From NCBI GenBank assembly GCA_964491325.1, contig CAZBFX010000001.1, positions 1,807 through 56,905 on the forward strand: 55,099 nucleotides of DNA. The letters are read 5' to 3'. This DNA is from an uncultured Candidatus Peribacteria bacterium (lineage in GTDB: Bacteria > Patescibacteriota > Gracilibacteria > Absconditabacterales > Absconditicoccaceae). The translations under genes were made by a program, and so were the position numbers. Of this stretch, positions 39,315 to 55,099 are shown in pieces (positions within the stretch are counted from its first letter, which is position 1; every line of letters starts with the position of its first letter). A model generated the notes under the pieces. It saw nothing but the letters and a program-made list of their open reading frames with translations, ran no database searches and was not told the origin of the DNA.

Positions 39315-40190
39315 ATGTTATTCTTTCTTCTTCTCTTTATTCTCGGTACGATATTTTGATCTTTTGGATCGGTGCTTTTGTTGAGATTGGATTGAAAGTA
39401 CTCATGGGAGGCGATACGAAGTATTATTACTGGGCGTTCGCAATGTCCATCCTGTCATCATGTACTTGCTCCATGGCAGCTTATTCCTCTATGGTGATGG
39501 ATTGTCCAGAGATGAAGATGTAGCTTTTGTCAGCAAAAGATATCGACGCTGTATCCTGTCTGTGAGATTGTCTCTTGATTGGTTTTTGTATTGCGATGAC
39601 TGCTAGCCACAAATTACGATTGGTGAATGTCTCATATCATCCTGTTGCCGATATGGTGGTTGATGGGTCTGATTCTCGTATGGGATATGTATAGCTATGA
39701 GCTCCATACCAAGATATGGTTATTATTGTCTGTTGTGGTTATTGTGTGGATAGCGATTATTGGTGATTGGCATCTCGTGTGGTGAGCTGCGATAGGATTA
39801 TCTGTCTTTGTGTTGTTATATCTCTTTGCTCGTCTGTATGTAGCCATACGCTTTGCTGGTACAGAGAGACATATAGGTGAGGGCATGGGCATGGGTGATG
39901 TGATGATGGCACCCATTATCGGATCGTTGATCGCATTCGCTCTCACATGATCACAGACTCTCTGGACACAATCTTTTTTCCTTGTCGATATGTCAGTTAT
40001 TGGTATTATTCAGTTGATTATTGTCTTCATCCTCGGGACATGTCTGTTGTGACTATGCTGGTATGCTGTGAGTCGTCTTTTTTTCTCAAGCAATCTGCAT
40101 CATCCTGACTGGAGTCAGGGTGCGGGTCCGGTTATTCCTTTTTTGCCTTCGATGATTATGATGTATTGGATCATAGTTTTTTTCTTGTAA
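39315..40190 (+). CDS. pilD: type IV prepilin peptidase (A24 family)
   Basis: N-terminal Zn-knuckle CPSCHHVL..(G)RCSFCQQKISTLYPVCE, polytopic, GMGMGDVMM (second catalytic Asp motif). Stop TAA 40188-40190. Confidence 0.85.
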
Positions 40191-40229
40191 TACTCTATTT
40201 ATCATAAGATTACGAAATGTCATTACTTT

Positions 40230-52100: not shown

Positions 52101-55099
52101 TGATACTTTTCCATGAGAATTAACATACCTCACTTCATCGATATCGCCTTTTATAGGATGAACAAATAATTTCTTTGTCCCAGCGTCGGGAAGTTTCAGT
52201 ATTATAGTAACAGGCGTTGTGAATAATAATTATTCATGATGAACGCTTTATACAAACACTGCAGATTTTATATGTCAGGTATCACTAGTGCCATGTACCA
52301 ATACTAGTGCTACGGCAACAGGGACGATAGTGTGATTTGGAGCGGTGAGCATTATTAAAGATATCACTTCCCCTAATATGAGCGGTGCGATATCGCAATC
52401 AGGACAGACAGTCATGTATGCTGTCACGATTTTTAATACAGGTACGGCTGCAATAACCTGAACTTTTGTCGATGTATTTCCACCACAATTGAGTATAGTA
52501 TCTATAAGCGTTCCTGCTACGATAAGCGGTCAGACGATAACGATAAGTTGATTAAATATTGCTGCCTGACAATCGTATTCAATGTTGATAACCTGAGTAC
52601 TTAATGGTACGTATCTAGCCAATACAACATATACAAATACAGCTACCTATACATGTATTTTGCCGTCAGTATGTAATAATGCTATTGCTTCAGCAACGTG
52701 AACAATCGTATGATTTGGAGCGGTTTCTATGACTAAACAATTTCTTTTACCAATGAGCGGTGGTGTGAGTCAGTCCTGAGATATGGTGACATATCAGATC
52801 CTTATCACTAATACTGGAACAACAACAGTAACAGGTTTTGTCACTGATATACGACCCTCACAATTAACGTTTATTTTATCAAATCCTTCAGTTGCGACAT
52901 GAGCTACTGGTTTGCTAGTATCTATACCTGCTTCATGATCGTTTGTTGTTACTCTGACATGAGTTCTCAATAATAATTATCCAGCCGGTACCTTGTATAC
53001 AAACACAGCGAACTTCACCTGTCAGTTACCTTTCATTTGTAATAATGCTATGGCAACTGTCACTGGTACTGTTGCCGGTTTCTGAAGCGTTCTTGTGAAT
53101 AAAGAATTTTTCTCTCCTAATATGAATGGAACGCTTTATAGTTCTGGTGATGTAGTTTCTTATGTTATAACAGTTACTAATACATGAACATCGTGAATAA
53201 CATGAGTGCTGACAGATATTTTACCGTCGCAGATTACCTATCTTAGTTCCTCTGTCTTATCTGGATCTATAACGCCACCATCGTTTTCATGATCTACTAT
53301 TATGCGAACAGGATTATATGTTGATCCTGGAATAGGGTCAATCAAAATAATCCTCACAGGAGTGTTAAATGATAATTATCCAGCAGGTACGCTCTATAGC
53401 AATAACGCTGATTTTGTTTGTACTGATCCATTGGTGTGTACTGTTGTAGATGATGGGACCGCTACCTGAACTATTTTATGACTTCCCAATCTAGTGCTAC
53501 AGAAGAATATTTTGACATGATCAGATGCGGTACTGTCTGGCGATATAGTTTCTTATAGTCTAACGGTGACAAATAGCGGTACATCGGTATGGTCGGGTGA
53601 CTGGTGTATTATGGATGTTCGGCCTTCTCAGGTTACTTTCTTCTCTTTTTCTCCTGTTCAGTTAACAGGTAGTATAGGATCATGCCCTCCAGGTGCATGG
53701 TATGGTACAGGCGTTCCTGCGACTATTATTCTTACAGGTAGGCTCAACGATAATTATCCGATTGCGACTATTGTCACTAATACATGATCAGTTTCTCCGT
53801 TATCTACAATAGAGTTGTTTACTGGTGACAATGTCGATACTGCATCATTTGCGATCGGTGGTATGGCAGAGATGACACTCACAAAGACTATGACGTGAGC
53901 TATCAATGGTATTTCAGGTACTATTGTTACCTATACTTTATCATATGTTAATCATGGCACGACATGAGCTTCCAATGTTGTTATACATGATACATTACCG
54001 TCAGTCTTTACGTATCTAGGCACTATCAGTGGCTGAACATGAGTTGCGTCTGGCAATCTCATTACATGGAATATTGGCAGTGTCCCAGCGTGAGCTTCGG
54101 GGAATGTTGTTTTTCAAGCATATTACAATCAGTTTGTCGCATCAGGTACTATTACCAATACATGATTGGTAACAACTACAACTCGTGATATTGATTTCAG
54201 TACAGACAATGCTCTCCATACTTTTTCTATAGTTCCTCTTCCTGAAATTGAGATCATTAAGACCATCCTTGATCCAGGTCAGCCATCATTATGATCTCCT
54301 CTATCATTTCTTTTGACTGTTGTCAATAACGGCGGTGCTACAGGATATAATATTATTATTCAAGATATACTCCCATCGTTTATTACATATGCTTCTCATA
54401 CATCTAATTTGAGTCCTTTGTTTTATACATGAGGTCTAAATATATATACATGAATAAATACTCCTTTAAGAACAGATCTTTTTGTTCTTGGTCCATGACA
54501 ATCGTGATATCTTATTATAACATGATATCTTAATCTTCAACCAACTACAGGAATTTCTTATGTCAATACTGCTATTGCAACAGGAGTGTTGAGTGCGTCA
54601 GGCGTATGATTGATTGATACCAATTGGGCCAATAATATTTCTACAGTGACCGGCACTCTTATCCCTCAGATAGGATGTAATCTGGTGATAAGCGGATCTG
54701 CTCCTTGGCAGACATCATATGGACTTGATCTGTCAGGTCAACAGGTGAATCTTAGTTATACTCTTACTCTGTCAGGCAATGTACCTCTTTCTGGTGGTAC
54801 GCTGACCACGACACGACCAAATAGTTTGACAAGACCCATCAATCTTCCAACAACAAATAATATAGCAACATGAATCACCCTCTCATGAACATCTGTCTCG
54901 TCATGGAATCTAACGGGTATAACTACCAATAGATCATTTACTTCTCTCAATGTGTCCGGCGTTGCACAGTTTAGCTTCGGTGGTAGTACATTTAGTTGTA
55001 CTACTACGACATCTCTTGTGCCACCACTTTGATGTAATAATGGCTATCTCAATCAATGAGAACAGTGTGATGTACTTAGTTACAATAACCAAACATACA
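49153..55099 (+). CDS. giant secreted tandem-repeat surface protein (at least 1,982 aa, 3' end beyond window)
   Basis: Sec signal MKKYIV(G)LVVCLALGFMSLLTSSASAQ. Frame 1 was read line by line to the window end with no TAA/TAG. About 14 DUF11-like units (..SGD.VTYQI.I.NTGTA.VTG.V.D..PSQLT..SS..; ..LTG.LNNNYPA.T.YTN.A.F.C.SP.VCNNA.A.VTG). Ends in CNNGYLNQ(G)EQCD. Confidence 0.8.
49668..53870 (+). repeat. in-frame tandem array of ~378-nt (~126-aa) coding repeats
   Basis: The recurrent (A/S)PN(A/M)SG anchor occurs at 50107, 50488, 50860, 51238, 51616, 51997, 52366, 52744 and 53110, with spacing of 366-381 nt. Copies at 50533-50765 and 52786-53015 are nearly identical. Confidence 0.85.

Follow-up and report, generated by a model that had tools for sequence, protein, structure and literature searches.

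A candidate attachment module of code-25 Patescibacteria that pairs adhesin-like proteins with a conserved leaderless giant

Gracilibacteria and Absconditabacteria recognise their hosts, hold on to them, and exploit them in ways that are still poorly understood, and few members of these groups have been cultivated. Of the proteins of Vampirococcus lugosii, a predatory Absconditabacterium, the ten longest (1,392-4,163 aa) have been proposed to act in host recognition and attachment; DUF11 is among the domains of these giants, for which a membrane localisation was inferred (Nat Commun 2021, PMC8080830). Repeats of this type, now named CLIPPER (formerly DUF11, PF01345), make up the stalks of fibrillar adhesins and may be stabilised by an isopeptide bond (Protein Sci 2025, PMC12617251). 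In the window, i.e., the whole stretch of 55,099 nucleotides analysed here, a prepilin peptidase gene (pilD) is followed by three giant genes, designated G1, G2, and G3 (Table 1), which raises the question whether these genes constitute a previously undescribed attachment system and which part pilD and the first giant have in it.

Genetic code and organisation of the locus

Open reading frames of at least 200 aa numbered 5 in the window with translation table 11 versus 47 with tables 4 and 25. Opposite in-frame TGA, the alignment of G1 orthologues contained Gly codons 62 times and Trp codons 0 times, and the window therefore uses code 25 (UGA = Gly); G1 itself holds 50 in-frame TGA codons read as Gly. 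Under this code the order of pilD and three co-oriented giant genes, as given in the original prediction, was confirmed. The gaps G1-G2 and G2-G3 measure 38 nt each. Terminators between the giant genes had been named as evidence against a common unit; no terminator-like site was found in any gap of the pilD-G1-G2-G3 locus, and the giant genes may be co-transcribed. The genes 5' of the locus are housekeeping genes, as judged from translations of all long open reading frames and Pfam searches on a subset, and they share the sequence composition of the locus.

The first giant had been described as a protein of 1,899 aa that follows pilD after 39 nt, which corresponds to a start at TTG 40230. However, the N-termini of both G1 orthologues and of all remote relatives are of the 'MASG' type, and L001, a related locus, offers no in-frame start codon 5' of the ATG that matches 40317. 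G1 is therefore placed at ATG 40317, which leaves the gene as predicted and revises its length to 1,870 aa and the gap to 126 nt. On the same grounds, the 29-aa extension from TTG 40230 was rejected as a signal peptide.

The pilD product matched Pfam A24_N_bact (PF06750; E=1.5e-24, residues 9-93) and carries two CxxC pairs (CPSC...CSFC) in this N-terminal domain, whereas its score against Peptidase_A24 (23.4 bits) was just below the 26.5-bit cut-off, indicating a divergent core. It is polytopic, with about 8 hydrophobic segments, and the catalytic Asp residues of A24 peptidases were found in VWD and in GMGDV, the second within a GxGD motif. The motifs VWDMYSYELH, GMGDVMM, and IPFLPSMI are kept in the homologues of L005 and L009, to which pilD is 44% and 33% identical, respectively.

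Table 1. Features of the pilD-G1-G2-G3 locus (positions in the window)
Feature	Size or residues	Positions (nt)	Strand	Basis or remark
pilD, prepilin peptidase (A24) homologue	291 aa	39315-40190	+	Pfam, motifs, hydrophobicity
pilD-G1 spacer	126 nt	40191-40316	+	conserved leader, promoter-like consensus match
Promoter-like TTGCTT, 16-nt gap, TATACT		40253-40258, 40275-40280	+	putative function, from consensus match only
G1, leaderless giant	1,870 aa	40317-45929	+	orphan family; orthologue-based start
G1 loop D-x-N-x-(D/N)-G-x-x-D-F-x-D	aa 587-601	42075-42119	+	8/9 family members
G1 Gly-rich, mildly hydrophobic block	aa 792-924	42690-43088	+	predicted long amphipathic beta-hairpins
G1 second conserved hydrophobic beta-hairpin (GGFSGFDLGIDYILAISTPVLSASISFEKYY)	aa 1035-1065	43419-43511	+	family alignment, AF2
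G1 hallmark Y-x-x-x-E-C-x-N-x-x-x-G, near C-terminus	aa 1740-1755	45534-45581	+	
G1 Gly/Pro/Asp-rich low-complexity C-terminal tail		45777-45926	+	hypervariable among close relatives
G1 stop codon		45927-45929	+	
G2, Sec-signal protein	1,048 aa	45968-49114	+	Pfam, NCBIfam
G2 signal peptide	aa 1-21		+	Sec-type leader, AFA/Q site
G2 variable tip domain	aa 22-250	46031-46717	+	
G2 Cys-rich CGNG...EQCD linker	aa 251-340	46718-46987	+	
G2 CLIPPER/DUF11 region	aa 341-1048		+	
G3, Sec-signal protein	at least 1,982 aa	49153-55099	+	runs off the window
G3 ten tandem CLIPPER units of ~125 aa	aa 308-1570	50074-53862	+	unit alignment
CLIPPER-like domains flanking the ten units			+	
G3 Cys-rich motif		55030-55071	+	

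Repeat proteins G2 and G3 and their known counterparts

G2 had been taken for a Sec-signal protein with DUF11-like units and G3 for a Sec-signal tandem-repeat protein, and the Pfam and NCBIfam searches support a fibrillar-adhesin architecture of CLIPPER/DUF11 repeats for both. G2 matched DUF11 in 3 stretches (E=4.8e-19) and TIGR01451 (E=4e-31), and scored 35 bits against TIGR04226 ('isopeptide-forming domain-containing fimbrial protein'; cut-off 30 bits), whereas its tip had no Pfam or NCBIfam match. G3 matched DUF11 in 12 stretches (E=1.4e-86). The Sec signals were read from the hydrophobic N-termini together with the AFA/Q site of G2 and the ASA/Q site of G3. A C-terminal transmembrane or hydrophobic segment and LPXTG were absent from G2, as was LPxTG from the available part of G3. 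The G3 units share a C-x5-6-C pair and conserved K...D...N positions, with Lys and Asp in 10/10 units and the Asn of a T-N-[TN] motif in 9/10; a tandem repeat at the DNA level was not detected in G3. Judged from alignment positions only, the spacing of these residues is like that of K715/D748/N806 in the solved CLIPPER domain (PMC12617251), although the solved structure was not among the matches of a phmmer search that had two G3 repeats as query. With the tail of G3 as query, generic CLIPPER proteins were the only matches, and no full-length G3 was among them.

In their very large size, Sec leader, tandem Ig-like units, and N-terminal domain outside the repeats, G2 and G3 agree with known CLIPPER fibrillar adhesins, and the G3 units also do so in the Cys pair near the unit end and, judging by the alignment, in K/D/N residues at the presumed triad positions (PMC12617251). 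The adhesin-like nature of both proteins is by itself ordinary. They differ from these adhesins in having no recognised adhesive domain or anchor (LPXTG, OmpA-like, archaeosortase), the C-terminus of G3 lying outside the window, and a preceding conserved leaderless giant gene has not been described for such adhesins. Sortase pili and MSCRAMM-type adhesins of Gram-positive bacteria likewise combine isopeptide-type Ig-fold stalks, as suggested for G2 by TIGR04226, with structural genes in a row, but the LPXTG-TM-charged tail is absent from G2 and the available G3, and no sortase gene was found among the translated open reading frames of the window. The Vampirococcus giants share the code-25-type lineage and the DUF11-bearing giant proteins, whereas neither a module with a leaderless orphan nor an exchange of tip cassettes is described for them (PMC8080830). 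The claim of a previously undescribed system thus holds for the conserved pairing with G1, which is new, and not for the involvement of giant DUF11 surface proteins in attachment, which had already been proposed for Vampirococcus. Tafi fimbriae (PMC11821415) were considered as an analogue and set aside, as their small donor-strand subunits are not comparable.

The G1 family, its partners, and the exchange of tips

The first giant had been predicted to have no signal peptide and no recognisable domain, and both statements were upheld. Full-length G1 had no match in Pfam, NCBIfam, or PDB sequences, and it contained no signal peptide, transmembrane segment, or known sorting signal, nor any hydrophobic window with a KD value of at least 1.6. 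Searches with 8 family members against Pfam, PHROG, and PDB profiles gave chance-level matches only, with DUF1641 and the like at E>0.06 and a sucrose-phosphatase at E=0.28. A word-index protein search with full-length G1 retrieved two close orthologues only, to which an 8-sequence profile added none; two scans in which each GTDB species is represented by a single genome yielded no relatives, and a JGI metagenome scan gave near-identical contigs only. In 1.84 billion representative proteins 16 relatives were found, and the known distribution of the family rests on about ten metagenomic contigs. In line with the prediction, G1 is an orphan, and its detectable relatives appear to be restricted to UGA = Gly lineages. 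The G1 AF2 model reached a pLDDT of 33 with a 2-sequence alignment and a mean of 64.6 with 16 sequences, and Foldseek returned no match at E<0.01 (best E=0.02, TM-scores 0.05-0.1), so that this moderate-confidence model provides no functional handle. The HMMER and structure queries were substrings of database proteins mistranslated with code 4 (Trp for Gly at UGA), which probably lowers the quality of the structure model.

Several features are shared within the family, of which the long members measure 1,444-1,961 aa. G1 displays the family traits of a leaderless protein of 1,400-2,000 aa with the D-x-N-x-D-G loop, the Gly-rich hairpin block, the C-terminal Y...EC.N...G motif, the low-complexity tail, and a Sec-signal tip/CLIPPER gene directly downstream. 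The loop presumably resembles Ca-binding loops such as those of EF-hand, dockerin, and FG-GAP sequences. In the Gly-rich block the Gly fraction is 0.14-0.22, as compared to 0.06-0.09 in the whole protein, and in 9/9 members the beta-periodic hydrophobic moment and mean hydropathy exceed those of the remainder. Its predicted AF2 strands comprise 11-16 residues (pLDDT 35-50). The alternating hydrophobic and small residues and predicted hairpins of this block are, in composition, what we take to be similar to the stems of beta-barrel pore-forming toxins, although G1 has no sequence or structural match to these toxins and is 5-6 times larger. At the second hairpin, AF2 strands were predicted at 480-491 and 496-506 (model numbering), and in L001 and L006 the highest KD window lies in this segment. 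The Y, E, C, N, and G of the hallmark are invariant in an 8-sequence alignment. Constraint on G1 is strong, as 50-aa windows showed 90-100% identity to L001; the tails of the window, L001, and L002 are completely different. The sole LPxTG of the locus, an internal LPTTG in G1 (aa 1293), was rejected as a sortase signal, as it reads LSTTG in L001 and no transmembrane segment follows. A relation of the EC.N motif to thioester-like motifs, exemplified by GCGEQ of the alpha-2-macroglobulins, was considered but is not claimed, as conservation does not extend to the Gln.

Relatives in which the genes are no longer syntenic would have argued against a functional set, and the pairing was found to be kept. 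In 8/8 lineages with visible downstream DNA a G1-like gene directly precedes a co-oriented Sec-signal G2-like gene at a distance of 20-138 nt and down to about 25% identity of G1, despite upstream neighbours that vary by lineage (fmt-pilD, FtsK/SiaC, or an M29 peptidase). The triplet G1, G2, G3 is present in the window, L003, and L001 (G1 70% identical), and in L006 (G1 30% identical) a homologue of the G2 tip lies 138 nt downstream. The G1-like gene is followed by genes for proteins of 360 aa, 613 aa (CLIPPER), and 1,498 aa in L007, by a 1,511-aa CLIPPER protein in L008, by a 358-aa homologue of the G2 tip and CLIPPER proteins of 873 aa and 1,170 aa in L009/L010, by a 1,283-aa protein in L011-13, and by a signal-peptide protein similar to G2 and the L012 partner in L014 and L015. 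Six complete tip-first partner proteins have Sec-type leaders and the common motif EC.N[YF]Y..RCGDG...E.CD. Through this conserved linkage, the suggestion that G1 partners the two surface proteins is well supported.

The tip of G2 does not follow the relatedness of G1. It shares 48% identity with the L006 partner, though the G1 proteins are 30% identical, and is unalignable with the partners in L001 and L002, though their G1 proteins are 70% and 91% identical to that of the window. Moreover, the DNA identity between the window and L002 drops to ~70% at a breakpoint, from ~45780 on. The comparison shows that the N-terminal tip of G2 behaves as a cassette whose exchange does not depend on G1.

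Possible functions of the module

The locus looks like a module for attachment at the cell surface that is restricted to certain lineages and includes a conserved giant protein without a leader. With a probability of roughly 0.55, we consider it to be one copy, extending from 40317 to beyond 55099, of a module confined to code-25 Patescibacteria of the Gracilibacteria/Absconditabacteria type. One part would be formed by Sec-exported fibrillar proteins, here G2 and G3, that consist of a variable tip, a Cys-rich linker, and a CLIPPER/DUF11 Ig-like stalk, and the other by the highly conserved and invariably co-encoded G1. Following Sec export, G2 and G3 would form long, mechanically stable fibres at the cell surface, the stalk repeats having a Lys-Asp-Asn pattern like that tied to intramolecular isopeptide bonds. 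Swapping of the tip, presumably a binding domain, by recombination may alter host or prey specificity, whereas G1 would be the non-exchangeable partner that the fibres need, either as a cell-proximal platform or anchor in contact with them, or as an assembly or export factor. Arguments against this reading are that no anchor to hold the fibres on the cell was found on G2, and that G1 has no signal peptide, transmembrane segment, or known sorting signal that would point to its leaving the cytoplasm or meeting the exported fibres.

The lack of a signal peptide and transmembrane segment would be expected if G1 had an unrelated intracellular role (structural, cytoskeletal, or nucleic-acid-associated) and its adjacency to the adhesins were meaningless. 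Its enzyme-like conservation in blocks, its conserved Cys/His clusters, which could bind metal, and a putative separate promoter would also suit such a role; it is nevertheless quite unlikely, as same-strand adjacency in 8/8 lineages, kept in spite of changing upstream genes, is difficult to account for unless the genes are functionally coupled. An accessory role in type IV pilus function, with PilD processing or helping to assemble the giants, or with the giants as pilus-tip adhesins, all encoded by one pilD-G1-G2-G3 operon, is very unlikely. Type IV pili are important in host attachment of Patescibacteria (PMC11452946), and an intact-looking A24 peptidase gene lies directly upstream of G1 in the window/L004 and in L005, even though the L005 G1-like protein is 34-36% identical, and 8.7 kb upstream in L009. 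However, adjoining pilD and G1 genes were found solely in this subclade, to which the window belongs and within which the order fmt-pilD-G1 is simply inherited, and no pilD occurs in the part of the upstream DNA that is visible in L007 and L011-13. Moreover, all three giants lack a class-III signal, the leaders of G2 and G3 being of the ordinary AxA Sec type. As predicted, pilin and ATPase genes are absent beside pilD: six-frame code-25 translations of the whole window contained 0 prepilin (class-III) motifs, and no pilin, assembly ATPase, or platform gene (PilB/PilT, PilC) was found among the translated open reading frames. The 126-nt spacer with its promoter-like element, of which ~50 nt before the ATG including TATACT are conserved in L001, makes a single operon including pilD doubtful, contrary to the proposed connection. 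The link to pili is weak, and pilD is a neighbour rather than a demonstrated component of the module.

A more active part of G1 is conceivable in two forms. As an effector, the leaderless giant would be set free or displayed where the two cells meet, and its Gly-rich amphipathic hairpins would insert into the envelope of host or prey to give a pore or feeding channel, G2 and G3 serving only to dock the cell. This is unlikely: the Gly-rich block and second hairpin are conserved in the family with raised amphipathic moment and hydropathy, AF2 predicts hairpins of membrane length flanked by helical bundles, beta-barrels are among the weak, non-significant Foldseek matches (pOmpT, the beta-domain of invasin, and a protein resembling porins), and cultivated Absconditabacteria are predatory (PMC8080830; PMC11452946), but the hairpin region has a pLDDT of 35-50, the Foldseek scores are poor as given above, no secretion route for G1 is evident, and beta-sheets buried in a soluble protein would account for the amphipathic pattern just as well. 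Rather improbable as well is a new contact-dependent machinery of UGA = Gly ultrasmall bacteria, in which G1 would be exported by an unrecognised route, tethered to the isopeptide-stabilised CLIPPER fibres, possibly via the conserved C-terminal domain of related loci, and form from its Gly-rich amphipathic hairpins a feeding or translocation pore through the envelope of host or prey, with the exchangeable G2 tip setting the host range. Tip exchange and the mosaic DNA identity also resemble phage receptor-binding modules, so that a remnant of a prophage or mobile element, e.g., a tail-fibre or host-recognition module, was considered; this origin is extremely improbable and was rejected, given PHROG matches for 0/8 G1-family members, no BFVD structural match at E<0.01, 0 tblastn matches in 50,697 phage records, and housekeeping flanks of the same composition.

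The attachment module with G1 as fibre partner provides a concrete and testable candidate, restricted to recoded lineages and with a tip that behaves like a host-range determinant. For the invariant 1,870-aa G1 no homologue or known fold was found elsewhere, and its size, conservation, and tight linkage in strongly reduced genomes argue for an important role. The near-invisibility of the family in public protein sets is explained by UGA being mistranslated as Trp or read as stop, and many further members would probably come to light on re-annotation with the correct code; retranslated from their contigs, the long members known so far contain 25-60 in-frame TGA codons each.

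G1 and its protein family

All four genes of the original prediction (pilD, G1, G2 and G3) exist under code 25, in which UGA is read as Gly. The reading frame of the giant orphan protein G1 proved real; its start was moved to the ATG at position 40317, giving 1,870 instead of 1,899 aa. Both database orthologues and all remote relatives have 'MASG'-like N-termini, the related locus L001 has no start codon in frame upstream of the corresponding ATG, and sequence conservation between the window and L001 extends over the approximately 50 nt preceding this ATG, which together define the gene as listed in the table. 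The predicted lack of a recognisable domain or signal peptide was borne out by Pfam, NCBIfam and PDB-sequence searches, which gave no match, and by hydropathy analysis, in which neither a signal peptide nor a hydrophobic window with KD ≥1.6 was detected.

Two orthologues were retrieved by a word-indexed search of 5.8 billion proteins, with 91% and 69-70% identity once UGA had been corrected. The region equivalent to G1 560-1759 served as query in an exhaustive HMMER scan covering 1.84 billion representative proteins, which detected 16 relatives, six of them long (1,444-1,961 aa, 17-36% identity). Re-translation from the contigs revealed 25-60 in-frame TGA codons per long member, so that the family seems to be restricted to recoded lineages. 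Eight members searched against Pfam, PHROGs and PDB gave nothing above chance. Besides the hallmarks located in the table, the family is characterised by a hypervariable Gly/Pro/Asp tail. An AF2 model of G1 built from 16 sequences (mean pLDDT 64.6) contained well-predicted helical bundles and beta domains, together with long, low-confidence hairpins in the Gly-rich block; Foldseek searches with this model against PDB and BFVD returned no hit with an E-value under 0.02, and TM-scores were around 0.05.

Two local peculiarities were observed. An 18-nt tandem repeat (2.7 copies, window 41465-41513) encodes an acidic Asp/Asn/Ala-rich stretch of G1 that carries a 6-aa deletion in L002 and is mostly missing from L001. 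The C-terminus of P0003, the G1-like protein of L005 (about 7000-7159), is a strongly hydrophobic 19-aa segment (KD 2.45) replacing the Gly-rich tail; this segment is either a tail anchor in the L005 lineage or the product of a frameshift close to the end of the contig.

Features of the window and of the loci bearing G1 relatives (L001-L015)
Feature	Position	Strand	Description
Two adjoining large proteins	14409-16406, 16410-19169	-	658 and 908 aa
tRNA array	22334-23775	+	11 tRNA genes
289-aa protein	29401-30324	-	N-terminal hydrophobic segment; Peptidase_Mx-type zinc metallopeptidase match (E=2.3e-6, just above cut-off)
YidD-hydrolase-Fmt fusion	37498-39297	+	single 596-aa ORF directly 5' of pilD
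pilD	39315-40190	+	A24 N-terminal domain, E=1.5e-24
G1	40317-45929	+	1,870 aa; start from orthologue N-termini
G2	45968-49114	+	1,048 aa; Sec-type leader; DUF11 E=4.8e-19
G3	49153 to beyond 55098	+	at least 1,982 aa; Sec-type leader; DUF11 E=1.4e-86 in 12 stretches
G1 hallmark	aa 587-601		D-x-N-x-D-G-x-x-D-F-x-D loop
G1 hallmark	aa 792-924		Gly-rich beta-amphipathic block
G1 hallmark	aa 1035-1065		second hydrophobic hairpin
G1 hallmark	aa 1740-1755		invariant Y...E-C-x-N...G motif
L003, L004			about 99% identical; fmt-pilD-G1-G2-G3 again
L001			G1 70% identical; G1-G2-G3 kept
L005			G1 34-36%; fmt-pilD-G1-like, contig end
L006			G1 30%; G1-like, then G2-tip homologue
L007			G1 about 25-29%; FtsK, SiaC(-), G1-like, 360 aa, 613-aa CLIPPER, 1,498 aa
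L008			G1 about 24-27%; G1-like, 1,511-aa CLIPPER
L009/L010			G1 remote; G1-like, 358 aa (G2-tip homologue, 27%), 873-aa CLIPPER, 1,170-aa CLIPPER
L011-13			G1 about 24-28%; M29 peptidase, G1-like, 1,283 aa
L014, L015			G1 remote; G1-like, then signal-peptide protein resembling L012/G2 partner
Giant Sec-signal proteins with ~200-aa C-terminal domain	L007 11343-15839; L008 5292-9827; L009 19079-22591; L012 5016-8867

Partner proteins, gene order and tip exchange

G2 and G3 had been described as Sec-signal repeat proteins, and both indeed combine a Sec-type leader with repeats of DUF11 (PF01345), since renamed CLIPPER, the Ig-like stalk repeat of fibrillar adhesins; in kind, they add two proteins to a class already known. 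In G2, which also passes TIGR01451 and TIGR04226, the leader is followed by a domain of about 230 aa without family match, a Cys-rich 'EC.NYY.SRCGNG...EQCD' stretch and CLIPPER domains; neither a C-terminal hydrophobic segment nor an LPXTG motif was found. G3 comprises ten tandem units of about 125 aa, diverged at the DNA level, with a C-x5-6-C pair in every unit, Lys and Asp in 10/10 and Asn in 9/10, at spacings comparable to those in a solved CLIPPER domain. The tight spacing was confirmed, the G1-G2 and G2-G3 gaps measuring 38 nt each, without a terminator-like site in either.

A Sec-signal G2-type gene lies 3' of the G1-like gene, on the same strand and at 20-138 nt, in all eight lineages with downstream DNA. 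Synteny, whose absence from relatives had been named as the finding that should speak against the G1-G2-G3 grouping, is therefore clearly present. Genes upstream of the G1-like gene vary among lineages. Even with code 25 applied, this gene is fragmented into several ORFs in L015 (515-5344), reflecting either an assembly error or a pseudogene; the contig carries a coverage label of 0.79x.

The tip, i.e., the N-terminal variable domain of G2 (aa 22-250), shares 48% identity with the partner (the product of the gene 3' of the G1-like gene) in L006, while the G1 proteins share 30%, and 31% with the partner in L009. It could not be aligned with the partners in L001 and L002, despite G1 identities of 70% and 91%. 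Along G1, the window and L002 are 82-100% identical at the DNA level; beyond about 45780, through the tail of G1 and the 5' end of G2, the value falls to about 70%. Window positions 40178-46300 form a mosaic relative to L002, with 100% identity over the first 600 nt and 82-99% in alternating 200-nt blocks thereafter, which suggests strain-to-strain recombination within and beyond G1. The tip pattern is as would be expected of an exposed specificity determinant swapped by recombination, and G1 behaves as the conserved component.

A conserved C-terminal domain of about 200 aa, closing with 'RRNxIFNGASVLIEYSPxL..LPPGAxEFTxALxVYK', ends the last giant gene of L007, L008, L009 and L012. It had no match in Pfam or NCBIfam and may represent a novel domain that anchors the protein or binds a partner. 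The sequence of G3 is cut off by the end of the window, and no complete copy of it was retrieved.

Reading of the locus

The locus is best read, at a probability of roughly 0.55, as a lineage-restricted surface-fibre or attachment module, in which Sec-exported CLIPPER fibres would carry an exchangeable tip, with the conserved, leaderless giant G1 as obligatory partner. G1 could serve as platform or anchor, as assembly or export factor, or as effector; the main difficulty in assigning its role is that it has no export signal whatsoever. That G1 would be a hairpin-inserting effector or pore, for which composition and low-confidence structure are the evidence, appears unlikely, and that it is an unrelated cytoplasmic protein slightly more so. 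Dependence on PilD or a type IV pilus is improbable to a further degree: the proposed link to pilD held in part only, since this gene adjoins G1 in a single subclade, where the fmt-pilD-G1 order was inherited whole, and no prepilin-type signal occurs in any frame of the window. In L009/L010, pilD lies 8.7 kb upstream. A phage remnant is highly improbable, considering that tblastn found no G1-family match in phage genomes and PHROGs gave none above chance.

Giant DUF11-bearing surface proteins have been proposed as host-attachment candidates in Absconditabacteria for Vampirococcus (PMC8080830). Four findings are new: the family to which G1 belongs; the strict pairing of its genes with tip and CLIPPER genes, kept over deep divergence; a tip that behaves as a cassette; and a conserved C-terminal domain that related loci have in common. 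By kind, the locus would rank among the known adhesin loci, and its core component is unexplained and possibly new.

Genetic code and surrounding genes

The window contains five ORFs of at least 200 aa with table 11 and 47 with tables 4 and 25. In-frame TGA codons were aligned with Gly codons of G1 orthologues 62 times and never with Trp, and the window therefore uses code 25, as known for Gracilibacteria and Absconditabacteria (PMC11452946); no tRNA-Gly(UCA) gene was found in it. Housekeeping genes upstream include tsf, rpoB, rpoC, cysS, a tRNA array, yidC, frr, tilS, galU and holA. A 285-codon minus-strand ORF under code 25 is spurious because the tRNA array occupies its position.

By eye, each of the 658- and 908-aa proteins, neither of which had a match in Pfam or NCBIfam, starts with a leader, appears to contain several hydrophobic segments and ends in a long, hydrophilic tail rich in Lys and Asn. 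They may be strongly diverged VirB6-like T4SS channel proteins, which have been reported as undetectable in Gracilibacteria (PMC12102498).

The A24 core of PilD is divergent (23.4 bits versus a 26.5-bit cut-off); the protein has about eight hydrophobic segments and shares its Asp-containing motifs with two homologues. The 126-nt spacer between pilD and G1 holds TTGCTT and TATACT, 16 nt apart, at most a putative element by consensus match. The fusion ORF 5' of pilD joins the membrane insertion factor YidD to an alpha/beta serine-hydrolase domain and to methionyl-tRNA formyltransferase, and the fmt-pilD order was found again in L005.
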